In this document: positions 189-32,848 of the stretch, in pieces | How the letters are laid out: every line of letters begins with the position of its first letter | Numbering within the stretch: the first letter of the stretch is position 1 | Source of the DNA: Peduovirus P24A7b | Reading direction: 5' to 3' (one strand) | Sequence record: NC_049390.1 | Length of the DNA stretch: 32,848 nucleotides | Translations under genes and position numbers: made by a program | Notes under the pieces: model-generated | Database searches by the model: none | Told to the model about the DNA's origin: nothing | Seen by the model: the letters and a program-made list of their open reading frames with translations, nothing else

Positions 189-1223
189 TCAGCCGTTGTC
201 AGTGTCCAGTGAGTAGTTTTTAAAGCGGATGACCTCCTGACCGAGCCAGCCGTTTATCTCGCGGATCCTGTCCTGTAGCGGGATAAGCTCATTGCGGACA
301 AAGACCTTTGCCACTTTCTCAATATCACCCAGCGACCCGACGTTCTCCGGCTTGCCGCCCATCAACTGAAAGGGGATGCGGTGCGCGTCCAGCAGGTCAG
401 CGGCGCTGGCTTTTTTGATATTAAAAAAATCGTCCTTCGTTGCCACTTCACTGAGCGGGATAATTTTAATGCCGTCGGCTTTTCCCTGTGGGGCGTAGAG
501 AAACAGGTTTTTAAAGTTGTTGCGGCCTTTCGACTTCACCATGTTTTCGCGAAGCATTTCGATATCGTTGCGATCCTGCACGGCATCGGTGACGTACATG
601 ATATATCCGGCATGAGCGCCGTTTTCGTAATACTTGCGGCGGAACAGCGTGGCCGACTCATTCAGCCAGGCAGAGTTAAGGGCGCTGAGATATTCCGGCA
701 GGCCGTACAGCTCCTGATTAATATCCGGCTCCAGCAGGTGAAACACGGAGCCGGGCGTGAAAGCTGTCGGCTCGTTGAAGGACGGCACCCACCAGTAAAC
801 ATCCTCTTCCACACCACGGCGGGTATATTTTGCCGGTGAGGTTTCCAGTCTGATGACCTTACCGGTGGTGCTGTAACGCTTTTCCAGAAACGCATTACCG
901 AACACCAGAAAATCCAGCACAAAGCGGCTGAAATCCTGCTGGGAAAGCCACGGATGCGGGATAAATGTCGAGGCCAGAATATTGCGTTTGACGTAAATCG
1001 GGGAGCTGTGATGCACGGCAGCACGCAGGCTTTTTGCCAGACCGGTAAAGCTGACCGGTGGCTCATACCATCTGCCGTTACTGATGCACTCAACGTAATC
1101 CAGAATGTCACGGCGGTCGAGTACCGGCACCGGCTCACCAAAGGTGAATGCCGCCATTTTCGGGGCGCTGGCGGTCATTGTTTTTGCCGCAGGTTGCGGT
1201 GTTTTCCCTTTTTTCTTGCTCAT
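189..1223 (-). CDS. Q: Portal (capsid portal) protein
   Basis: 344-aa ORF; sequence and length match P2 gpQ as recalled; adjacent to and co-oriented with terminase P, overlapping it by 1 nt. Confidence 0.93.
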   Translation of the reverse strand: MSKKKGKTPQPAAKTMTASAPKMAAFTFGEPVPVLDRRDILDYVECISNGRWYEPPVSFTGLAKSLRAAVHHSSPIYVKRNILASTFIPHPWLSQQDFSRFVLDFLVFGNAFLEKRYSTTGKVIRLETSPAKYTRRGVEEDVYWWVPSFNEPTAFTPGSVFHLLEPDINQELYGLPEYLSALNSAWLNESATLFRRKYYENGAHAGYIMYVTDAVQDRNDIEMLRENMVKSKGRNNFKNLFLYAPQGKADGIKIIPLSEVATKDDFFNIKKASAADLLDAHRIPFQLMGGKPENVGSLGDIEKVAKVFVRNELIPLQDRIREINGWLGQEVIRFKNYSLDTDNG

Positions 1224-5154: not shown

Positions 5155-5898
5155 ATGACGAGTCCCGCACAGCGCCACATGATGCGGGTCTCGGCAGCGA
5201 TGACCGCGCAGCGGGAAGCCGCCCCGCTGCGACATGCAACTGTCTATGAGCAGATGCTGGTCAAGCTGGCCGCAGACCAGCGCACACTGAAAGCGATTTA
5301 TTCAAAAGAGCTTAAGGCCGCGAAAAAGCGCGAACTGCTGCCGTTCTGGTTGCCGTGGGTGAACGGTGTGCTGGAGCAGGGCAAAGGTGCACAGGATGAC
5401 ATTCTGATGACGGTCATGCTGTGGCGTCTGGATACCGGCGATATTGCCGGTGCGCTGGAGATTGCCCGTTATGCCCTGAAGTACGGTCTGACCATGCCGG
5501 GTAAACACCGCCGCACCCCGCCGTACATGTTCACCGAGGAGGTCGCACTCGCGGCCATGCGCGCTCACGCTGCCGGTGAATCTGTGGATATCCGCCTGCT
5601 GACGGAGACCCTTGAACTGACCGCCACGGCTGACATGCCTGATGAAGTGCGCGCAAAGCTGCACAAAATCACCGGTCTGTTTCTGCGTGACGCTGGTGAT
5701 GCCGCAGGGGCGCTGGCGCACCTGCAACGCGCGACACTGCTCGACTGTCAGGCAGGCGTCAAAAAAGAGATTGAACGACTGGAGCGGGAGCTGAAACCGA
5801 AGCCGGAGCCGCAGCCCAAAGCGGCCACCCGTACCCCGCGTAAGACCCGGAGCGTGACACCGGCAAAACGTGGACGCCCGAAAAAGAAAGCCAGTTAA
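5155..5898 (+). CDS. M: Terminase small (endonuclease) subunit
   Basis: 247 aa with basic K/R/P-rich C-terminus; matches P2 gpM length and position. Confidence 0.92.
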   Translation: MTSPAQRHMMRVSAAMTAQREAAPLRHATVYEQMLVKLAADQRTLKAIYSKELKAAKKRELLPFWLPWVNGVLEQGKGAQDDILMTVMLWRLDTGDIAGALEIARYALKYGLTMPGKHRRTPPYMFTEEVALAAMRAHAAGESVDIRLLTETLELTATADMPDEVRAKLHKITGLFLRDAGDAAGALAHLQRATLLDCQAGVKKEIERLERELKPKPEPQPKAATRTPRKTRSVTPAKRGRPKKKAS

Positions 5899-5997
5899 CA
5901 ACCGAATGCGCCCCGCGCCAGGGCGGCACGCCGGTCAGTGAGGGTGAATCACCTGACACTGTACCGGCGTCCACCGCCCGACTTTTCAGAGGTAGTC

Positions 5998-6507
5998 ATG
6001 ATGACGCTGATTATTCCGCGAAAGGAGGCTCCTGTATCCGGTGAGGGTACGGTGGTCATCCCGCAACCGGCAGGCGACGAGCCGGTGATTAAAAACACGT
6101 TCTTTTTTCCCGATATCGACCCGAAGCGCGTCCGGGAACGTATGCGCCTTGAGCAGACCGTCGCCCCCGCCCGTCTGCGTGAGGCCATCAAGTCAGGCAT
6201 GGCGGAGACGAATGCGGAGCTGTACGAGTACCGCGAACAGAAAATTGCCGCCGGTTTTACGCGTCTGGCGAACGTCCCGGCGGACGATATCGACGGTGAA
6301 AGCATCAAAGTTTTTTACTACGAGCGCGCCGTGTGTGCGATGGCGACCGCGTCGCTTTATGAGCGTTATCGCGGCGTGGATGCCAGTGCGAAAGGCGACA
6401 AGAAGGCCGACAGCATAGACAGCACCATTGATGAGCTGTGGCGGGATATGCGCTGGGCGGTGGCGCGTATCCAGGACAAGCCGCGCTGCATCGTGAGTCA
6501 AATCTGA
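5998..6507 (+). CDS. L: Head completion/stabilisation protein
   Basis: Trimmed to ATG at 5998 (MMTLIIPRKEAP...), 169 aa as for P2 gpL. Confidence 0.9.
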   Translation: MMTLIIPRKEAPVSGEGTVVIPQPAGDEPVIKNTFFFPDIDPKRVRERMRLEQTVAPARLREAIKSGMAETNAELYEYREQKIAAGFTRLANVPADDIDGESIKVFYYERAVCAMATASLYERYRGVDASAKGDKKADSIDSTIDELWRDMRWAVARIQDKPRCIVSQI

Positions 6508-6710
6508 TGAAGACCTTTGCGCTACAGGGCGACACGCTCGACGCCATTTGTGTCCGGTATTACGGGCGCACTGAGGGCGTGGTTGAGACTGTGCTCGCCG
6601 CAAATCCGGGACTGGCTGAACTGGGGGCGGTGCTGCCACACGGCACCGCCGTCGAACTGCCTGACGTTCAGACCGCGCCCGTGGCTGAAACTGTCAATCT
6701 GTGGGAGTAA
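6507..6710 (+). CDS. X: Tail protein X (LysM-like small protein)
   Basis: Trimmed to ATG at 6507 (MKTFALQGDTLDAICVRYYG...), 67 aa as for P2 gpX; TGATG overlap with the L stop. Confidence 0.85.
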   Translation: MKTFALQGDTLDAICVRYYGRTEGVVETVLAANPGLAELGAVLPHGTAVELPDVQTAPVAETVNLWE

Positions 6711-6995: not shown

Positions 6996-7492
6996 TGCCG
7001 GTAATTAACACGCATCAGAATATCGCCGCCTTTCTCGACATGCTGGCCGTGTCCGAAGGGACGGCGAACCATCCGCTGACGAAAAACCGGGGCTATGACG
7101 TGATAGTCACCGGACTGGACGGGAAGCCGGAAATTTTCACCGACTACAGTGACCACCCGTTCGCACATGGCCGACCGGCGAAGGTGTTTAACCGTCGCGG
7201 TGAAAAATCCACGGCCTCCGGTCGCTATCAGCAGCTTTACCTGTTCTGGCCGCATTACCGCAAACAGCTTGCCCTGCCGGATTTCAGTCCGTTGTCACAG
7301 GACAGACTCGCCATTCATTTGATCCGCGAACGCGGTGCACTGGATGACATCCGGGCGGGACGCATTGAACGCGCCATTTCACGCTGTCGCAATATCTGGG
7401 CGTCCCTGCCGGGTGCCGGTTACGGTCAGCGTGAGCATTCACTGGAAAAACTGGTCACCGTCTGGCGTACCGCTGGCGGCGTACCGGCTTAA
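6995..7492 (+). CDS. K: Endolysin (lysozyme)
   Basis: 165 aa, MPVINTHQNIAAFLDMLAVSEGTANHP...; matches P2 gpK. Confidence 0.93.
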   Translation: MPVINTHQNIAAFLDMLAVSEGTANHPLTKNRGYDVIVTGLDGKPEIFTDYSDHPFAHGRPAKVFNRRGEKSTASGRYQQLYLFWPHYRKQLALPDFSPLSQDRLAIHLIRERGALDDIRAGRIERAISRCRNIWASLPGAGYGQREHSLEKLVTVWRTAGGVPA

Positions 7493-7506
7493 ACGGAGTA
7501 AACACC

Positions 7507-7932
7507 ATGAAGAAATTATCCCTTTCACTGATGCTGAACGTGTCGCTGGCGCTGATGCTGGCACTGTCCCTGATTTACCCGCAGAGCGTGGCCGTCAGTT
7601 TTGTCGCCACCTGGGCGATTCTGGCGACGGTTATCTGTGTGGTTGCCGGTGGTGTCGGCATGTATGCCACTGAGTATGTACTGGAACGCTACGGACGGGA
7701 GCTTCCGCCGGAATCGCTGGCCGTGAAGATTGTCACGTCGCTGTTTTTGCAGCCGGTGCCGTGGCGCAGGCGGGCAGCGGCTCTGGTGGTGATGGTGGCG
7801 ACGTTTATCTCGCTGGTCGCTGCCGGGTGGATTTTTACCGCACTGATTTATCTCGTGGCGTCGCTGTTCTTCCGGCTGATACGTACGGCCTGTCGTCAGC
7901 GTCTTGAGGGGCGGGAACTATGTCAAAGCTGA
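7507..7932 (+). CDS. lysA: Lysis-timing membrane protein LysA
   Basis: 141 aa, strongly hydrophobic, immediately after K as in P2. Confidence 0.8.
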   Translation: MKKLSLSLMLNVSLALMLALSLIYPQSVAVSFVATWAILATVICVVAGGVGMYATEYVLERYGRELPPESLAVKIVTSLFLQPVPWRRRAAALVVMVATFISLVAAGWIFTALIYLVASLFFRLIRTACRQRLEGRELCQS

Positions 7933-9436: not shown

Positions 9437-10222
9437 TTATGAGTGATTTTTATTTGATGCTTTGTATTCTACAACCTTCTTATTGGCGTAAAGGAATTTT
9501 GTATATGACAGGAATATAACCAGACCTGAAATGAAATAGATGAGGGATATTATTAATAATGCTTTTTTTTGGCTGTTATTATCTTTAATTTCCTGACTTA
9601 ACCATTCCGAGTCCTCCTCGTTTAGCCGTAAGAGCTTATTGCAGGCGATCTCAGGAAGTGTGTCTTTTATAAATATGTTTCGTAGCCTCTTGCAATCGGC
9701 AAGGCTATAAGTTTTATTGAATTCAACTGTTTTATTGTTGAAGGATAAAAGAACTTTGTCACTATAAACATAGTACATCATATTTTTATATGGTATGCCT
9801 ATGGCATCTCTTACTATAGCGGATTGTTTGTTGTGTATATAACATGCGAAGAGAATATAAATAATGCTGGACAGAATTACAATTATTGTTTTAATTATGT
9901 GTGGTGGTTTTGTTATGTCACCCCAGAAGCGAGTAAGAAAAAAATACGATGTTTTTAGTTTTCCATCAATCAGCCCCTGCTGTATCATTCTCACATCTTC
10001 GATGCCTGATACATTGATTCCGTTAATTATTTTAAATAGTTGAATGTCGCGCCATTTTTTGTCGAGCATTTTTAACTTTCTGTCTGAATACTCAAAATTG
10101 AAATGATGTGCAATAAACCTCATAAGATTACTTTTACCAAAGGTAATAAATGTTAATGCTATTAATAAAAATAGATACAAAGAGATAAACCACCACGCAT
10201 TAGTCACATTATCACTGAACAT
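9437..10222 (-). CDS. Moron: hypothetical polytopic membrane protein (3 predicted TM helices), function unknown
   Basis: 261-aa ORF on the strand opposite the flanking late genes; visibly AT-rich; AGGAG Shine-Dalgarno 6 nt upstream of the ATG; hydrophobic segments near aa 9-29, 112-132 and 224-246; occupies the S-V position (orf30 in P2). Confidence 0.8.
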   Translation of the reverse strand: MFSDNVTNAWWFISLYLFLLIALTFITFGKSNLMRFIAHHFNFEYSDRKLKMLDKKWRDIQLFKIINGINVSGIEDVRMIQQGLIDGKLKTSYFFLTRFWGDITKPPHIIKTIIVILSSIIYILFACYIHNKQSAIVRDAIGIPYKNMMYYVYSDKVLLSFNNKTVEFNKTYSLADCKRLRNIFIKDTLPEIACNKLLRLNEEDSEWLSQEIKDNNSQKKALLIISLIYFISGLVIFLSYTKFLYANKKVVEYKASNKNHS

Positions 10223-16190: not shown

Positions 16191-16598
16191 ATGGCTAAGC
16201 GGATTCCTGGTGTTAGTAAAGAATGGTCTAACTATCTCCTTTGTTTATTATTACATATGTCTTTACCTCTCTTACCTTTGGGGTTCGAGACACTTGTGCG
16301 TTCCGATCACTTGCCATCAATACAAACATTAAACATTACAGCGGCGTTTTATGCGATCTCGATAGGGCTTTCTTCTAAGAACGTTGCTATGTTTGGTTTG
16401 GGTATATTCGTGAGCATTTGTTTCTCTGTTGTATTTGGGATTGTTTCTTCAAATCCTAATTCTGATCCTAATCTTAATTTTAATGATAACTTGTATTTTT
16501 ATTCTCCAATTGCGTGTATTGTTGCTATATTTGTTATACATGCATGTGAACGATATAACAGGCATGTTGCTGATTGTACACCATTTTTTGAGTTTTAA
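16191..16598 (+). CDS. Hotspot cargo gene 1: small polytopic membrane protein (135 aa), function unknown
   Basis: AT-rich ORF at the G-FI (P2 Z/fun) position; 3-4 hydrophobic helices; Asn/Pro-rich loop NPNSDPNLNFNDN; weak Shine-Dalgarno, so the exact start is uncertain (alternative ATG at 16255). Confidence 0.65.
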   Translation: MAKRIPGVSKEWSNYLLCLLLHMSLPLLPLGFETLVRSDHLPSIQTLNITAAFYAISIGLSSKNVAMFGLGIFVSICFSVVFGIVSSNPNSDPNLNFNDNLYFYSPIACIVAIFVIHACERYNRHVADCTPFFEF

Positions 16599-16607
16599 GG
16601 GGGTGCT

Positions 16608-17099
16608 ATGATTGATACAATTATCCCAGTAATACTATCAATTCTCCCGGCAATACTATCTATATTTAGCTTAGTAGCTGTTTCTATAGGTGCATTAGTA
16701 TCTATCAGGTCTGTTAAAAAAAGACGTGAAATAGAAGTTCAGCTTTTTAATGAGATAATAAATCAACAAATTAAACAAACTAAAAGCAACCGTAAAAAGG
16801 ATCTTGAAAATAGTGTTAATGAAATAGAAAATGAACTCAAGAGAAGAGTTGATATTTTGAATAAAATGCAAAAAGATCTAGAAGCAGTTTCAGAGAACAA
16901 ATACTATTTTGATAAAGCAAAATATCTTCGAAATGTCAAGTATGGAGAGTATTTATTAGAGATAAATGAAGCTGTGAATAATATTGATAATAAAAACAAA
17001 CACTTACTAAATAACGCTCTTAATCAAAGCTCTGAGATTGGAAAAGTAAGATATCTTGGAAGAATAACAAAGGAAGCACTGGAAAAAACAGTAGGCTGA
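16608..17099 (+). CDS. Hotspot cargo gene 2: membrane-anchored charged/coiled-coil protein (163 aa), function unknown
   Basis: Strong Shine-Dalgarno (AAGGGGG) 7 nt upstream of the ATG; 9-nt gap from gene 1; N-terminal hydrophobic helix (aa 4-32) then a K/E/N-rich heptad-like region; AT-rich. Confidence 0.8.
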   Translation: MIDTIIPVILSILPAILSIFSLVAVSIGALVSIRSVKKRREIEVQLFNEIINQQIKQTKSNRKKDLENSVNEIENELKRRVDILNKMQKDLEAVSENKYYFDKAKYLRNVKYGEYLLEINEAVNNIDNKNKHLLNNALNQSSEIGKVRYLGRITKEALEKTVG

Positions 17100-27635: not shown

Positions 27636-27907
27636 GTATTCGTATCGAAATTGACGAACGTTATGTCGTTACCAGTGACAGCTTTCAGTTTATTCTCCAC
27701 GAGAAAAAGAGAGCGGAAAGCGGTAAAAATGCCGGTCAGGAATGGCTGGCGGTGGTTGGTTATTACCCGAAATTAAGCCAGCTCGTTTCCGGCCTGATGC
27801 ATCACGATATTCTGACCGGAAGCGCAAAATCTTTTGCCGATTTAAACGCGCAGGTTGAGCAACTCAGCAAGCGTTGTTCAGAGGCTTTTGGCTCACATGG
27901 CCGTTAA
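27632..27907 (+). CDS. Hypothetical early protein (P2 orf83 position)
   Basis: 91-aa ORF directly upstream of and overlapping A. Confidence 0.7.
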   Translation: MSIRIEIDERYVVTSDSFQFILHEKKRAESGKNAGQEWLAVVGYYPKLSQLVSGLMHHDILTGSAKSFADLNAQVEQLSKRCSEAFGSHGR

Positions 27908-30182
27908 AGCCTCAGGGCGTTTTGTCCCTCCGTCAGCATTTGCTGCAGGCACCGGTAAGGCGTTTACTGGTGCTTATGCATGGAACGCGCCACGCGAGGC
28001 TGTCGGGCGCGAAAGACCTCTTACACGTGACGAGATGCGTCAGGTGCAAGGTGTTTTATCCACGATTAACCGCCTGCCTTACTTTTTGCGCTCGCTGTTT
28101 ACTTCACGCTATGACTACATCCGGCGCAATAAAAGCCCGGTGCACGGGTTTTATTTCCTCACATCCACTTTTCAGCGTCGTTTATGGCCGCGCATTGAGC
28201 GTGTGAATCAGCGCCATGAAATGAACACCGACGCGTCGTTGCTGTTTCTGGCAGAGCGTGACCACTATGCGCGCCTGCCGGGAATGAATGACAAGGAGCT
28301 GAAAAAGTTTGCTGCCCGTATCTCATCGCAGCTTTTCATGATGTATGAGGAACTCAGCGATGCCTGGGTGGATGCGCATGGCGAAAAAGAATCGCTGTTT
28401 ACGGATGAGGCGCAGGCTCACCTCTATGGTCATGTTGCTGGCGCTGCACGTGCTTTCAATATTTCCCCGCTCTACTGGAAAAAATACCGTAAAGGGCAGA
28501 TGACCACGAGGCAGGCATATTCTGCCATTGCCCGCCTGTTTAACGATGAGTGGTGGACTCATCAGCTTAAAGGCCAGCGTATGCGCTGGCATGAGGCGTT
28601 ACTGATTGCTGTCGGGGAGGTGAATAAAGACCGTTCTCCTTATGCCAGTAAACATGCCATTCGTGATGTGCGTGCACGCCGCCAGGCAAATCTGGAATTT
28701 CTTAAATCGTGTGACCTTGAAAACAGGGAAACCGGCGAGCGCATCGACCTTATCAGTAAGGTGATGGGCAGTATTTCTAATCCTGAAATTCGCCGGATGG
28801 AGCTGATGAACACCATTGCCGGTATTGAGCGTTACGCCGCCGCAGAGGGTGATGTGGGGATGTTTATCACGCTGACCACGCCGTCAAAGTATCACCCGAC
28901 ACGTCAGGTCGGAAAAGGCGAAAGTAAAACCGTCCAGCTTAATCACGGCTGGAATGATGAGGCATTTAATCCAAAGGATGCGCAGCGTTATCTCTGCCGT
29001 ATCTGGAGCCTGATGCGCACGGCATTCAAGGATAATGATTTACAGGCCTACGGTTTGCGTGTTGTTGAACCACACCACGACGGAACGCCGCACTGGCATA
29101 TGATGCTTTTTTGTAATCCACGCCAGCGTAACCAGATTATTGAAATCATGCGTCGCTATGCGCTCAAAGAGGATGGCGACGAAAGAGGAGCCGCGCGAAA
29201 CCGTTTTCAGGCAAAACACCTTAACCGGGGCGGTGCTGCGGGATATATCGCGAAATACATCTCAAAAAACATCGACGGCTATGCACTGGATGGTCAGCTC
29301 GATAATGATACCGGTAGGCCGCTGAAAGACACAGCTGCTGCTGTTACCGCATGGGCGTCAACGTGGCGCATTCCGCAATTTAAAACGGTTGGTCTGCCGA
29401 CAATGGGGGCTTACCGTGAACTACGCAAATTGCCTCGCGGCGTCAGCATTGCTGATGAGTTTGACGAGCGCGTCGAGGCTGCACGCGCCGCTGCAGACAG
29501 TGGTGATTTTGCGTTGTATATCAGCGCGCAGGGCGGGGCAAATGTCCCGCGCGATTGCCAGACTGTCAGGGTCGCCCGTAGCCCGTCGGATGACGTTAAC
29601 GAGTACGAGGAAGAAGTCGAGAGAGTGGTCGGCATTTACGCGCCGCATCTCGGCGCGCGTCATATTCATATCACCAGAACGACGGACTGGCGCATTGTTC
29701 CGAAAGTGCCGGTCGTTGAGCCTTTGACTTTAAAAAGCGGCATCGCCGCGCCTCGGAGTCCTGTCAATAACTGTGGAAAGCTCACCGGTGGTGATACTTC
29801 GTTACCGGCTCCCACACCTTCTGAGCACGCCGCAGCCGTGCTTAATCTGGTTGATGACGGAGTTATTGAATGGAATGAACCGGAGGTCGTGAGGGCGCTC
29901 AGGGGCGCATTAAAACACGACCTGCGAACGCCAAACCGTCAGCAGAGAAACGGAAGCCCGTTAAAACTACATGAAATTGCACCATCGGCCAGACTGACCC
30001 GGTCGGAAAGAATGCAAATTACCCGTATCCGCGTTGACCTTGCTCAGAACTGTATCAGGCCGCAGCGATGGGAGTTTGAGGCGCTGGCGCGTGGCGCGAC
30101 CGTAAATTATGACGGAAAAAAATTCACGTATCCGGTCGCTGATGAGTGGCCGGGATTCTCAACAGTAATGGAGTGGAAATGA
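27897..30182 (+). CDS. A: Rolling-circle replication initiator A
   Basis: Trimmed to ATG at 27897 (MAVKASGRFVPPSAFAAGTGK...), 761 aa as for P2 gpA; contains the twin-tyrosine motif GYIAKYISK (about 29244-29270). Confidence 0.95.
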   Translation: MAVKASGRFVPPSAFAAGTGKAFTGAYAWNAPREAVGRERPLTRDEMRQVQGVLSTINRLPYFLRSLFTSRYDYIRRNKSPVHGFYFLTSTFQRRLWPRIERVNQRHEMNTDASLLFLAERDHYARLPGMNDKELKKFAARISSQLFMMYEELSDAWVDAHGEKESLFTDEAQAHLYGHVAGAARAFNISPLYWKKYRKGQMTTRQAYSAIARLFNDEWWTHQLKGQRMRWHEALLIAVGEVNKDRSPYASKHAIRDVRARRQANLEFLKSCDLENRETGERIDLISKVMGSISNPEIRRMELMNTIAGIERYAAAEGDVGMFITLTTPSKYHPTRQVGKGESKTVQLNHGWNDEAFNPKDAQRYLCRIWSLMRTAFKDNDLQAYGLRVVEPHHDGTPHWHMMLFCNPRQRNQIIEIMRRYALKEDGDERGAARNRFQAKHLNRGGAAGYIAKYISKNIDGYALDGQLDNDTGRPLKDTAAAVTAWASTWRIPQFKTVGLPTMGAYRELRKLPRGVSIADEFDERVEAARAAADSGDFALYISAQGGANVPRDCQTVRVARSPSDDVNEYEEEVERVVGIYAPHLGARHIHITRTTDWRIVPKVPVVEPLTLKSGIAAPRSPVNNCGKLTGGDTSLPAPTPSEHAAAVLNLVDDGVIEWNEPEVVRALRGALKHDLRTPNRQQRNGSPLKLHEIAPSARLTRSERMQITRIRVDLAQNCIRPQRWEFEALARGATVNYDGKKFTYPVADEWPGFSTVMEWK

Positions 30183-30634
30183 TGGCAAAAATTCACGAGG
30201 TAAAGCTGCACGCCAAATATTTTGACCTTGTGCTGGAAGGAAAGAAACGCGCAGAGTTTCGGAAAAATGACCGTAATTATGAGCGCGGGGACACGTTGAT
30301 TTTGCATGAATGGGTACAGGGTGTGTATACGGGGCGAAAGGTTGAAGCCCGGATAACAGATGTTACTGACCTGTCAGACTGGCTGGAAGATTATGTCTTG
30401 CTAAGTATTGAGCTGCTTAATACAGGCGCATATGAGATTGTGAACTGGAAAGAACTTAGTGAGCGTGGTCTGGTATTCAGAATTAATCATGAAATTATGC
30501 ATCAGCTCGGCCTTTCTGTTATGTATGAACCAGAGACGGGGATGTCTGGCGGGGCAATGGTTGCCACGGATGGAGCATGGAACTATTCAGATGAACAGAT
30601 GGAGCGTGCACAGCAAAACGGGTGGCTTGGATAA
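30179..30634 (+). CDS. ASCH/DUF3850-like domain protein with a C-terminal extension (about 151 aa)
   Basis: N-terminal about 75 aa (MAKIHEVKLHAKYFDLVLEGKKRAEFRKNDRNYERGDTLILHEW...) carries the ASCH-type G-x-K-x-x-E-x-R motif; start overlaps the A stop (ATGATG, start at 30179 or 30182). Confidence 0.7.
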   Translation: MMAKIHEVKLHAKYFDLVLEGKKRAEFRKNDRNYERGDTLILHEWVQGVYTGRKVEARITDVTDLSDWLEDYVLLSIELLNTGAYEIVNWKELSERGLVFRINHEIMHQLGLSVMYEPETGMSGGAMVATDGAWNYSDEQMERAQQNGWLG

Positions 30635-30840
30635 TGCACAGAATACCAGGCGAGATACCGCAACATAAAACTAAAAATATCAAGCTGATGGCTATTGTTC
30701 ACCGTCTACAGCAGATTATGGTTAACGAAAATCTGACGCCTGACGAGCTGGTCGGGTGTGCCGAAATAGTCCGGGATAATTACGGGCGGTTTAACCATAT
30801 CGGTCAATCCAGAGTTATGCCACCACCACGCAGACGATAG
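30634..30840 (+). CDS. Small hypothetical protein (68 aa), translationally coupled to the ASCH-like gene
   Basis: TAATG stop/start overlap at 30632-30636; basic Pro/Arg-rich C-terminus. Confidence 0.45.
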   Translation: MHRIPGEIPQHKTKNIKLMAIVHRLQQIMVNENLTPDELVGCAEIVRDNYGRFNHIGQSRVMPPPRRR

Positions 30841-30964
30841 AGAACGCCGCCAGTCGTGAAACTTGTTTTCAGGGCTGGCGGGGTTGAACAACGAGCGAAG
30901 CGAGGCGTTAGTTGACAGTAATATTTTTACTGCGTTGGTGCTGGTTTTTGACGGTTGAAAGGAG

Positions 30965-30981: not shown

Positions 30982-31069
30982 AGCTAACAACTTACAAATA
31001 TTCAAAAGTAAGCTTCCTGTTGCTAACATAAGGTCGATTTTTTATGTGGATGATGCAAAAAGGATAGCT

Positions 31070-31801
31070 ATGGATACTGTAATCGCTTTTCTATCACTCG
31101 CTTTTTTCGTTGCTTTTTTCATCGGGTTAATCAAACCATCACTGGTGCGGATGCCAAACCGTAAACGTGCAAGTGCGGTTTATCTCGGAGGAGGTTTTGT
31201 ATTGAGCATAATTGGTTCAATACTCTATCCAACAGAAAAAAGCCAGCCAGTTGCTAAAACTGAAACATCAACCGTTGCAGAACACCAAGTCCAAAAAACA
31301 TTCGAATATGGTGGAAAAACACTCAAGGAATATCGGAACGAGCCAAAGAAAACTCGACACGATATTGTAAATAGTTACATTGATTTTAAGGAAGTGCCAG
31401 TCACCGCATCAGATGCATTTTATGCCTGCATGAGTGAATATACTTTTACCAAAGATGATGAGTTGAAACTCGGTGATGTTCTTGGATGGTGCTTTAATGA
31501 TTATGAAAAAGATCCGCAATCACTAAACAATAAAATCAACCTTGATACATTTCAGAGTAATTTTAGTGGTTGGGATGGTTCTTATCGACCATTGGAAAAG
31601 TTAATTAAAGAGAATATGAACGATGATTCATCTTATAAACATGTGTCAACAGTGTATCATTTAATCCTGAATAAAGACCCTCACGCCATTGTGAAAACCA
31701 CATTTCGCGGTACTAATGCCTATGGTGGTGTCGTGAAGCAAACAATAGCAGCGCGTGTTAATGTGAAAACGGGTGAAATAGTTTCGATACTAAATAATTG
31801 A
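31070..31801 (+). CDS. Hotspot cargo: two-TM membrane-anchored protein with about 190-aa soluble domain, function unknown
   Basis: Trimmed from the GTG at 31046 to the ATG at 31070 (AAGGA Shine-Dalgarno); hydrophobic helices at aa 3-22 and 36-52; AT-rich; at the A-to-cos position (tin/old in P2). Confidence 0.75.
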   Translation: MDTVIAFLSLAFFVAFFIGLIKPSLVRMPNRKRASAVYLGGGFVLSIIGSILYPTEKSQPVAKTETSTVAEHQVQKTFEYGGKTLKEYRNEPKKTRHDIVNSYIDFKEVPVTASDAFYACMSEYTFTKDDELKLGDVLGWCFNDYEKDPQSLNNKINLDTFQSNFSGWDGSYRPLEKLIKENMNDDSSYKHVSTVYHLILNKDPHAIVKTTFRGTNAYGGVVKQTIAARVNVKTGEIVSILNN

Positions 31802-31806
31802 TGGTG

Positions 31807-31846
31807 ATGCCACCGATACTGAAGTTTGATATTGTGTCGGTGGCAT
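31807..31846 (+). terminator. Stem-loop downstream of gene 31070..31801
   Basis: Perfect 10-bp inverted repeat ATGCCACCGA / TCGGTGGCAT with a 20-nt loop starting 6 nt after the stop; T-rich runs follow further downstream. Confidence 0.4.
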
Positions 31847-32007
31847 TGAAAGATGATCTTAAAGCATGTCTATTTTTTTGTTTTACATGATTTTTTTTTT
31901 TGATGTGTTGTGCGTTGTTTTGTTTGTAATTAGAGTGCTTGATGATTTAAATTTCGTTTAAATGTTGTGTGAAAATATTGTGATTTTCTATATCAAGGAT
32001 TTGTTTC

Positions 32008-32706
32008 ATGAAGTATTGTGGGATAGCTTTAATAATATGTCTTTGCTTGTTTATGTTCGCATTTGGTTTTGTGTTGGGTGGAGTTCAATGGGCATGGGGC
32101 GAGAGTGAAAATAATAGCAAGGTCGCATTTTGGACAATGCTAGGAGGGTGGGTGTCAGGATTGGCTACTCTCGCGGCTGTGGGGGTTTCATTATTTACAA
32201 GTTATTATGCGATGATTTCAGGCAAAGAGAAAGTTGACGTTGTTTTTGCGCCTATATATACGACCTCTACGGCAAAAAAAGCAGATAAGCTTTCATTGCA
32301 AGATTTGGCTAATATCAAAGTGACAAATTTACACGGTGTGAAGTGTACTATTGTTAATGTTTATATGAAGTTTAGTGATGTTAAGGAACCATTAAAGATT
32401 AATAACCTTAAACAGGGAGGTAAGCCAATACCTTATACGCTATGTAATATAAGCGATATGTGGGAGTTTGCATTTGGGATGGAGTCAAACCCTAGATTGA
32501 GATTTCTATTGTCAGGGTTGAAATATGAAGGTCGACCATCCTTTAAAAAAGGGCATTTCATCATTGAAACAGCAATGAAACAATACAAGTTAAAGATGCG
32601 GAAAGACTTTCTCTCAATATTACAGAGTGAGTATCAAAGCATAGAGGAAGAATCTAAACGTAACTCAGTTAAATCAGGGTGGTCACGGTATAAAAAACTG
32701 AATTAA
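32008..32706 (+). CDS. Hotspot cargo: two-TM membrane-anchored protein with about 165-aa soluble domain, function unknown
   Basis: ATG at 32008 with AAGGA Shine-Dalgarno; hydrophobic helices at aa 5-25 and 40-64; very AT-rich; last gene before the cos end. Confidence 0.75.
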   Translation: MKYCGIALIICLCLFMFAFGFVLGGVQWAWGESENNSKVAFWTMLGGWVSGLATLAAVGVSLFTSYYAMISGKEKVDVVFAPIYTTSTAKKADKLSLQDLANIKVTNLHGVKCTIVNVYMKFSDVKEPLKINNLKQGGKPIPYTLCNISDMWEFAFGMESNPRLRFLLSGLKYEGRPSFKKGHFIIETAMKQYKLKMRKDFLSILQSEYQSIEEESKRNSVKSGWSRYKKLN

Positions 32707-32722
32707 TTACCTAATCAGTTAT

Positions 32723-32743
32723 CATGCATACACAATATGCATG
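32723..32743. repeat. Inverted repeat CATGCATA-cacaa-TATGCATG within a cluster of ATGCA motifs near the right genome end
   Basis: Perfect 8-bp arms; further TGCATG/ATGCA copies at 32749-32756 and 32811-32825. Confidence 0.3.
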
Positions 32744-32848
32744 GATTTGCATGCGCAAGCAGCATTCACATTGGTTGTTTTAGTTCAGGACTGGTGCTGT
32801 TTCGACGTGTTCATGCAACTGCATTAAAACCGACCCATGAAGCGGGCG

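Follow-up and report, generated by a model that had tools for sequence, protein, structure and literature searches.

The cos-proximal hotspots of P2 and P4 are a rich source of new anti-phage systems. The genes old and tin of P2 and many validated defence genes occupy the hotspot that lies in P2-like phages between the replication gene A and the cohesive (cos) end, although such hotspots also hold non-defence cargo, including partition systems and the cytolethal distending toxin (PMC9122126). About one fifth of P2-like elements carry only genes of unknown function at this position (PMC13586616). Here we analyse the last gene of the hotspot in Peduovirus P24A7b (NC_049390.1), whose 32,848 nucleotides are called the window throughout. 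This gene, at 32008..32706, is named gene 2 and its neighbour at 31070..31801 is named gene 1; both had been described in an original prediction made from the letters of the window.

Both families have been catalogued by Rousset et al. (2022). In the available part of their Table S5B, the gene-1 family is system #12 ('2 TM', 210 loci) and the gene-2 family is system #30 ('2 TM', 119 loci), and the two are curated as separate single-gene systems. The entry of system #30 is an allele of the L052 type (loci are numbered L001 onwards), with the motif MLGGWLSAIATL. It shares with gene 2 the family, the hotspot and the single-gene status, and in the part of the catalogue available it stands without function, fold, topology or family analysis. 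The window allele, WP_048266361, was not found among the examined portion of these tables. The present analysis defines the family behind this '2 TM hypothetical' entry and describes its fold, its probable topology and a transmembrane (TM) motif that is diagnostic of it.

Several characterised membrane proteins resemble gene 2 in part. Cap15, an effector of the cyclic-oligonucleotide-based anti-phage signaling system (CBASS), has two N-terminal TM helices and a small all-beta cytoplasmic domain, and binding of its trigger leads to membrane disruption. Pinholins, such as S68 of phage 21, have a TM helix with a glycine or small-residue zipper, a dispensable first TM helix, and form small depolarising pores. 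Gene 2 is like the Cap15-like '2TM' effectors in its TM pair and all-beta domain, and the logic proposed for it below is alike (Cap15 is cited in PMC9122126); however, gene 2 has no PADLOC match to a 2TM effector of CBASS or Pycsar, and its single-gene cassette has no adjacent cyclase. It resembles pinholins in having a conserved small-residue TM helix next to a dispensable first one, whereas pinholins have no 160-residue cytoplasmic domain and are located in lysis cassettes. No holin Pfam family matches gene 2 or the 58 aligned relatives on which the conservation analysis and the library scans were based. Furthermore, some 24 kb of the window lie between gene 2 and the P2 lysis genes, and the lambdoid relatives come in addition to a normal holin.

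Among the exclusion proteins, P22 SieA is, like gene 2, a small prophage-encoded inner-membrane protein. Some types of SieA have an extra N-terminal TM helix, and the types show only about 24% mutual identity (PMC10883804). Unlike gene 2, SieA has three to four TM helices and no large soluble domain. SieB (of lambda and P22) and RexB are prophage membrane proteins that abort superinfection, and SieB is present in the 186-type version of the hotspot, as 'hypothetical + SieB + DinI' in the available part of Table S5A of Rousset et al. Profile comparisons of gene 2 by hhalign gave probabilities of 0.13% with P22 SieA, 0.14 and 0.32% with the two SieB proteins (lambda and P22), and 0.16% with RexB. 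Neither gene 2 nor the 58 relatives had a Pfam SieB match (E <= 1), and no rexA-like gene is adjacent to gene 2. Since no profile matched, gene 2 is not assignable to SieB, SieA or RexB. Finally, Orf97 of coliphage 186 is, like gene 2, a cargo protein with two TM helices that is encoded beside cos in P2/186-like phages, and differs from it in belonging to an unrelated family with another fold, two invariant cysteines, a basic inter-TM loop and stronger conservation.

A one-gene cargo cassette beside cos

The window starts at position 1 with GGCGAGGCGGGGAAAGCAC, which we take to be the P2 cohesive end, and it is an entire P2-like genome in its linear form, cut at cos. Its genes follow the P2 order, with the portal and terminase genes on the minus strand at the left, followed by capsid, lysis and tail genes and the integrase. 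Gene 2 is the final gene of the gpA-to-cos hotspot: it lies between gpA (plus orf91) and the cos end with portal gene Q, and its stop codon is 142 bp short of the right end. The content of this cassette differs among otherwise near-identical phages. By megablast, Peduovirus genomes are 94-97% identical to the window as far as approximately position 31791 and show no match beyond it. The 1.07-kb right end was found at 98-100% identity in seven of 5426 complete E. coli genomes, within P2-like prophages, whereas the cos-proximal flank matched 187 of the same genomes. No plasmid copies of the gene-2 protein were found by tblastn. Gene 2 is an autonomous one-gene cargo cassette of approximately 31.80-32.78 kb, an ordinary kind of object, a hotspot moron. 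Its independence from the neighbouring gene makes it suited to a 1-kb single-gene construct. The features of the cassette are as follows.

31807..31846, plus strand: stem-loop right after the stop codon of the upstream gene, with 13-nt arms and a 14-nt loop (fold -25.2 kcal/mol, z = -3.85)
31847..32007, plus strand: AT-rich upstream region of 161 bp with 25.5% guanine plus cytosine (GC) and 52% T, presumed to be the gene's own promoter region
31873-31879 and 31891-31901, plus strand: T7 run and T11 run within the AT-rich upstream region
31995-31999, plus strand: Shine-Dalgarno sequence AAGGA, 8 nt before the ATG
32008..32706, plus strand: gene 2, coding sequence of 699 nt and 232 amino acids (aa) with an ATG start, member of PHROG 16957 (list of open reading frames, ORFs; RefSeq)
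32011..32097, plus strand: TM helix 1, aa 2-30, from hydropathy and AlphaFold; poorly conserved and missing in about half of the family
32137..32205, plus strand: core of TM helix 2 (aa 44-66), where the family is best conserved
32221..32601, plus strand: soluble beta-sandwich domain, aa 72-198, predicted cytoplasmic, highly variable among alleles
32602..32700, plus strand: C-terminal helix, aa 199-231 (AlphaFold)
32723..32743, plus strand: short perfect hairpin downstream of the stop codon, its stem 8 bp long, which does not have the form of a canonical terminator (repeat search and RNA fold)
32783..32848, plus strand: cos-proximal sequence, the right edge of the variable cassette, common to most of the 187 matching E. 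coli genomes, with matches from query positions 1004-1007

A 699-nt ORF in DNA of 37% GC, with a PHROG match and a family of 131 representatives, is beyond chance. RefSeq calls the same coding sequence that the original prediction had taken as a gene, and an identical 699-nt coding sequence in E. coli AR_0081 is WP_048266361.1, 'hypothetical protein'. The prediction was also right in placing the gene as cargo at the tin/old position beside cos and in giving it an AAGGA Shine-Dalgarno sequence. The long T-runs that it reported at 31880-31905 exist, slightly offset from the positions listed above. Its statement that this is the most AT-rich gene in the window does not hold: the GC content of gene 2 is 0.373, against 0.322, 0.353 and 0.291 in three other ORFs. 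These three strongly AT-rich ORFs, at 9437-10222 (minus strand), 16191-16598 (plus strand) and 16608-17099 (plus strand), respectively, are inside the late region, which has 55-60% GC, and they are probably further morons; P2 presumably carries orf30 and fun(Z) at their positions. No Rfam family was found in the regions upstream or downstream of gene 2.

Family, fold and contexts of the gene-2 protein

The gene-2 protein matches the full-length profile of PHROG 16957 (function unknown) with E = 1e-51, residues 6-216 aligning with positions 18-221 of 223. A word-indexed search gave 19 enterobacterial relatives with 28-51% identity, and an exhaustive profile search with HMMER against 1.84 billion cluster representatives gave 131 matches at E < 1e-3, 29 of them at E < 1e-10. 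A second large profile search extended the family into many Pseudomonas genomes. In this search a single relative, from Pseudomonas, was named 'Asp23/Gls24 family envelope stress response protein', and the other 51 matches were 'hypothetical' or unnamed. The Asp23/Gls24 label is isolated and probably spurious, no NCBIfam model matched, and it was not used. Neither gene 2 nor any of the 58 relatives had a Pfam or NCBIfam match beyond chance, and comparison of the family profile with the sequences of PDB gave chance-level matches only. The family is unnamed; it had been catalogued before, and is defined here by its fold, probable topology, TM motif and contexts.

The AlphaFold model of the protein, made from an alignment of 16 sequences, has a mean predicted local distance difference test (pLDDT) score of 81.7, with values of 84-94 in the soluble domain. 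Residues 2-30 and 38-71 each form a helix in this model, residues 76-196 make up a beta-rich domain of seven strands, and a long helix (199-231) lies at the C-terminus. Hydropathy also supports the two N-terminal hydrophobic helices, in agreement with the prediction, which had also called the soluble domain lysine-rich. Lysine makes up 14.3% of the soluble part and 25 of the 232 residues of the whole protein (10.8%), whose isoelectric point (pI) is 9.7. Basicity of the soluble domain is common across the family (pI > 8 in 69%) and not universal; therefore, no hypothesis of nucleic-acid binding was built on it.

About half of the 58 aligned relatives have no TM helix 1; these are one-TM forms of 175-190 aa that start a few residues before helix 2. 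Averaged over 26 one-TM members, the stretch of 15 residues that leads into the conserved TM helix has 0.6 lysine plus arginine and 1.4 aspartate plus glutamate, while the 15 residues after it have 3.7 lysine plus arginine. Because the positive residues follow the helix, the soluble domain is cytoplasmic by the positive-inside rule, and the N-terminal tail of the one-TM forms, of 5-20 residues, faces the periplasm. The two-TM forms add one helix, which would leave both ends inside and expose to the periplasm just an acidic loop of 7-14 residues. The gene-2 product is thus predicted to be an inner-membrane protein with a probable cytoplasmic domain.

Conservation is highest in TM helix 2, with 2.80 bits per column, compared to 1.87 in TM helix 1, 1.42 in the domain and 1.35 in the C-terminal helix. 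The motif of TM helix 2 is G46-x-W48-x-[SA]50-G51-x-[GA]53-T54-x-x-A57-V58-x-x-S61-L62-x-x-A65, with W48 invariant in the 58 sequences and small residues in at least 97% of them at positions 46, 50, 51, 53, 54, 57, 61 and 65. Conservation and smallness both show a periodicity of about 100 degrees (conservation peak at 95-100 degrees), that is, a single face of the helix. The one-TM members retain this stripe, and it is therefore not solely for packing on TM helix 1. It suggests intermolecular helix packing, which may be self-association or binding to another membrane protein. The conserved spots of the domain are a turn motif LP..L..GE (P142, G149 and E150), T188 and a few hydrophobic or threonine positions, and the alignment of relatives shows no catalytic-looking conserved residues in it.

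Outside P2-like phages, the relatives are found in several settings. In lambdoid-type prophages (L035, L036, L038, L040, L045 and L048), the relative lies between the lysis cassette (holin, endolysin and DUF2514 spanin) and the small or large terminase gene; this post-spanin position is the bor-type moron site beside cos. In 58-kb siphophages and in Pseudomonas prophages, it lies between portal/Mu-F and the scaffold/capsid genes (the L033 group, L061 and L062). This place in the head-morphogenesis module is fixed and co-oriented in L061 and L062, which are Pseudomonas veronii prophages (7001-7609), and in L033, L034, L039, L041 and L044. In single cases the relative is counter-oriented to the early operon that holds it, close to the integrase (L063), or it diverges from an S24 repressor gene (L022), or it has a lambda-type integrase and a cytosine methylase nearby (L037). 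Two settings are not in phages: in L015-L018 the relative is found among a TIR gene, a nucleoside 2-deoxyribosyltransferase-like gene and ParE/Phd, and in L046 it is near ParD antitoxins and a pentapeptide-repeat gene, counter-oriented to its neighbours. The contexts thus span at least three unrelated groups of temperate phages, and the distribution is as expected of a moron: sporadic, at several unrelated sites and sometimes in its own orientation.

Possible functions of gene 2

Our best guess is that gene 2 has a single-protein, membrane-acting exclusion or abortive-infection function. Judged by context, some anti-phage role is slightly favoured, because the cassette is in an anti-phage hotspot, the family occurs in moron and TIR/toxin-antitoxin contexts, and one member is paired with an AIPR/AbiU-like gene. 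The explanation that fits best, held tentatively and at a little under an even chance, is membrane-acting protection of the lysogen from other phages through cytoplasmic sensing and a TM pore. In such a mechanism the protein would sit in the inner membrane with its N-terminus in the cytoplasm, followed by a TM hairpin and, again in the cytoplasm, the basic beta-sandwich and the C-terminal helix. The variable cytoplasmic domain would recognise a phage product, the small-residue TM helix would then self-associate into a pinholin-like or Cap15-like pore, and the pore would collapse the membrane potential, by which the infection would be aborted. The analysis shows that the gene is real, occupies the hotspot and is independent of gene 1, and it covers the fold and probable topology of the protein, the pattern of conservation and the moron and defence-island settings of the relatives. 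Expression in the lysogen, anti-phage activity, oligomerisation, pore formation and the role of the cytoplasmic domain as sensor are the steps that we infer. The abortive version is favoured because the presumed specificity part is cytoplasmic and would meet phage products only after their entry, and because what stays invariant is a TM helix with a small-residue stripe, of the pore-building kind, to which the TM segments of pinholins and Cap15-type proteins belong. As a specific mechanism, sensor-pore abortive infection is nevertheless doubtful. Rather unlikely is the wider proposal of a widespread, self-contained single-protein module, in which the fast-evolving cytoplasmic beta-sandwich would sense a phage protein directly and release a conserved glycine-zipper-like TM helix to form a depolarising pore, in the manner of Cap15 but with no cyclase or second messenger, and whose alleles would be swapped as cassettes at cos-proximal and other moron sites of P2/186-like, lambdoid and Pseudomonas phages. 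If direct sensing and pore formation were true, gene 2 would be among the smallest self-contained abortive-infection modules, and specificity could readily be mapped with the alleles that nature already supplies; a gene 2 with no anti-phage phenotype would be a reminder that hotspot position does not prove defence.

A number of observations weigh against lysogen protection. No consensus sigma-70 promoter was found upstream of gene 2 (31847-32007), so that expression in the lysogen is presumptive. PADLOC-DB 2.0, dated 2023, gave no match beyond chance for gene 2 or the 58 relatives, the single match being 2TM_IV at E = 0.0068, which is chance level. No phenotype was found for any family member in the literature searched by accession and PHROG, and the sequences of systems #12 and #30 were not found in the available part of Table S2 of Rousset et al., which holds the tested constructs. 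Instead of self-assembling, the conserved TM helix could just as well bind a membrane protein of the host that is itself conserved, and the co-orientation with late genes in many phages fits a role in the lytic cycle too. The main non-defence rival, which we consider fairly improbable, is such a late function: a membrane protein for the phage's own lytic cycle (lysis timing, modulation of holin or antiholin, lytic-growth exclusion), or else for host envelope physiology. Small-residue TM stripes are typical of holins and pinholins, and the six lambdoid loci, from at least two subfamilies, carry the relative immediately after holin, endolysin and spanin and co-oriented with them. The fixed co-oriented place between Mu-F/portal and scaffold/capsid in Pseudomonas prophages and 58-kb siphophages is not where a membrane protein is usually encoded and speaks most strongly for a late function outside defence, and the non-defence cargo of the hotspots (PMC9122126) points the same way. 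However, in P2-like phages a long distance separates gene 2 from Y, K, lysA and lysB, the lysis genes, presumably those at about 6.7-8.3 kb of the window, and it has no holin match in Pfam. Few of the prophages that are otherwise nearly identical carry it, and unrelated genes readily take its place; it is therefore not required for lysis or assembly; in L063, L022 and L046 it is counter-oriented to its neighbours.

Superinfection exclusion by a block of DNA entry, acting on the ejection or tape-measure conduit or on a host inner-membrane factor, as in P22 SieA, HK97 gp15, DicB and perhaps the neighbouring Orf97, is quite unlikely. It would agree with an inner-membrane protein at a prophage cargo site, with the annotation of the neighbour's homologue in 186 as blocking 186 infection, with a conserved TM helix that could bind a conserved host membrane protein, and with the parallel between the one-TM and two-TM forms of gene 2 and the extra TM helix and divergence of the SieA types (PMC10883804). 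On the other hand, the predicted topology leaves hardly any periplasmic exposure in either form, the cytoplasmic location of the variable part fits detection of a phage that has already entered better than obstruction of a conduit in the periplasm, and there is no homology to SieA. Very improbable is a two-component system with gene 1 as conserved partner and gene 2 as variable partner. A gene-2 family member is directly behind gene 1 in 17 examined loci (L001-L004, L013, L014, L026-L032, L049, L052, L054 and L056), where gene 1 is 80-100% identical to the window copy and the gene behind it just 28-40% identical; both are two-TM membrane proteins, and a conserved and a variable member are found in some sensor/effector pairs. 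However, gene 1 is missing beside the gene-2 relatives of 11 P2/186-type loci and of every context outside P2-like phages: the relative follows gpA immediately in L005-L009, L024 and L025, it comes after a SocA/Panacea-domain gene and a gene of 191 aa, which may be a toxin-antitoxin pair, in L010-L012, and it is beside an AIPR/AbiU-like gene in the 186-like phage L023. Phage 186 and a 186-like phage of Yersinia, in turn, have gene 1 as their final gene and no gene 2, and in E. coli unrelated genes can stand behind gene 1. Orf97 of 186 is annotated as infection-blocking when expressed alone, the available tables of Rousset et al. score two separate systems, a stem-loop and a 206-bp AT-rich spacer lie between the two genes, and the predicted topologies put the two soluble domains on different sides of the membrane. 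The distribution of the two genes led us to reject an obligate two-gene system, and it largely refutes the two-component reading. We conclude that genes 1 and 2 are independent cassettes whose joint travel is partial, not obligatory; their frequent adjacency is due to both occupying the cos-proximal end. The original prediction had left open whether the two proteins act together or separately, and the occurrence of each gene without the other speaks for separate functions and not for joint action. Taken as a whole, the prediction was mostly right in what it observed and partly right in its reading. Of the two genes found alone, Orf97 has an annotated function and gene 2 is without annotation.

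Gene 1 and other features of the cargo region

The genes that surround the cassette, in the order of the window, are as follows.

189-1223, minus strand: portal (gene Q), at the left end of the window
27855-30182: gpA, replication gene A, in the right part of the window
30146-30634, plus strand: orf91 homologue, with DUF3850/ASCH and a C-terminal DUF7415 domain, between gpA and the variable cargo
30622-30840, plus strand: conserved ORF of 68-72 aa after the orf91 homologue, present in all P2-type loci examined
31070..31801, plus strand: gene 1, homologue of phage 186 Orf97, two TM helices and a probably periplasmic domain, outside the gene-2 unit

Gene 1 shows 79% identity to Orf97 of coliphage 186, and RefSeq takes its start as the ATG at 31070, not the GTG at 31046. 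In the 186 record, orf97 is the last gene of the LexA-controlled tum operon, with the annotation 'expression from plasmid blocks 186 infection', which probably stems from Brumby et al. 1996, as cited in PMC5322425. The Orf97 family has more than 157 clusters with a mean column identity of 65%, far better conserved than the gene-2 family. The AlphaFold model of gene 1 (pLDDT 78.9) shows two TM helices, a disordered linker, HdeA-like helices and a four-stranded sheet. The inter-TM loop is strongly basic, KPSLVRMPNRKRAS in translation, and the sole cysteines, C120 and C141, are both invariant, which suggests a periplasmic, disulfide-bonded domain. The soluble domains of genes 1 and 2 are thus probably on opposite sides of the membrane.

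The two proteins had been said to have the same overall architecture with no obvious sequence similarity. The lack of similarity was borne out by BLASTP (best E = 1.4) and by hhalign, whose profile-profile probability of 0.3% indicates that they are not paralogues. The shared architecture stands in so far as both have two TM helices and a C-terminal domain, but the folds differ, a beta-sandwich in gene 2 and helices with a four-stranded sheet in gene 1, and the topologies are opposite. Structural paralogy of the soluble domains, which had been raised as a question, was rejected on these alignments and on the different AlphaFold folds.

The slot behind gene 1 is occupied by at least four diverged alleles of the gene-2 family or by unrelated genes. 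The unrelated ones, found in E. coli P2-like prophages, are AT-rich and encode a soluble protein of 224 aa in L050 (4392-5066), a protein of 198 aa in L051 (4315-4911), a protein of 260 aa with a C-terminal TM anchor in L053 (4344-5126) and a protein of 429 aa in L055 (4345-5634), none of the four with a Pfam or PADLOC match. L051 also carries an FRG-domain gene (5328-6683, minus strand) that matches the PADLOC candidate PDC-S15.

In P2-type loci, a strong conserved hairpin, GCCGCCAGTnnTGAAACTTGTTTTCAGnGCTGGCGGGG then TTGAACAACGAGC..CGAGGCGTTAG, precedes gene 1 (-35 kcal/mol, z = -4.7; 30846-30912 in the window). A second copy follows gene 1 in L026, L028, L029, L030, L049, L002 and phage 186 (L057, 3838-3906). 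The window copy is diverged: the stem-loop at 31807-31846, which is the left edge of the gene-2 cassette, is a diverged copy of the conserved hairpin at 30846-30885, and other loci have the conserved hairpin in the corresponding place. The conserved hairpin has no Rfam match and is distinct from the annotated 186 terminator t95b. It flanks the Orf97 cassette, where it might stop transcription, stabilise RNA or act as the joint at which cassettes are exchanged by recombination.

Insertion sequences (IS) cluster in the cargo region (L014, L049 and L056). IS3 is upstream of gene 1 in strain bR_120 and IS1 is within gene 1 in strain E1, L049 and L056 being among the loci concerned. In E. coli E94 and E92 (L014), IS5 lies about 25 bp upstream of the start codon of gene 2, whose ORF is intact with 97% identity. 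IS5 insertions are able to activate promoters silenced by H-NS, and by analogy the insertion in E94 might alter the expression of gene 2.

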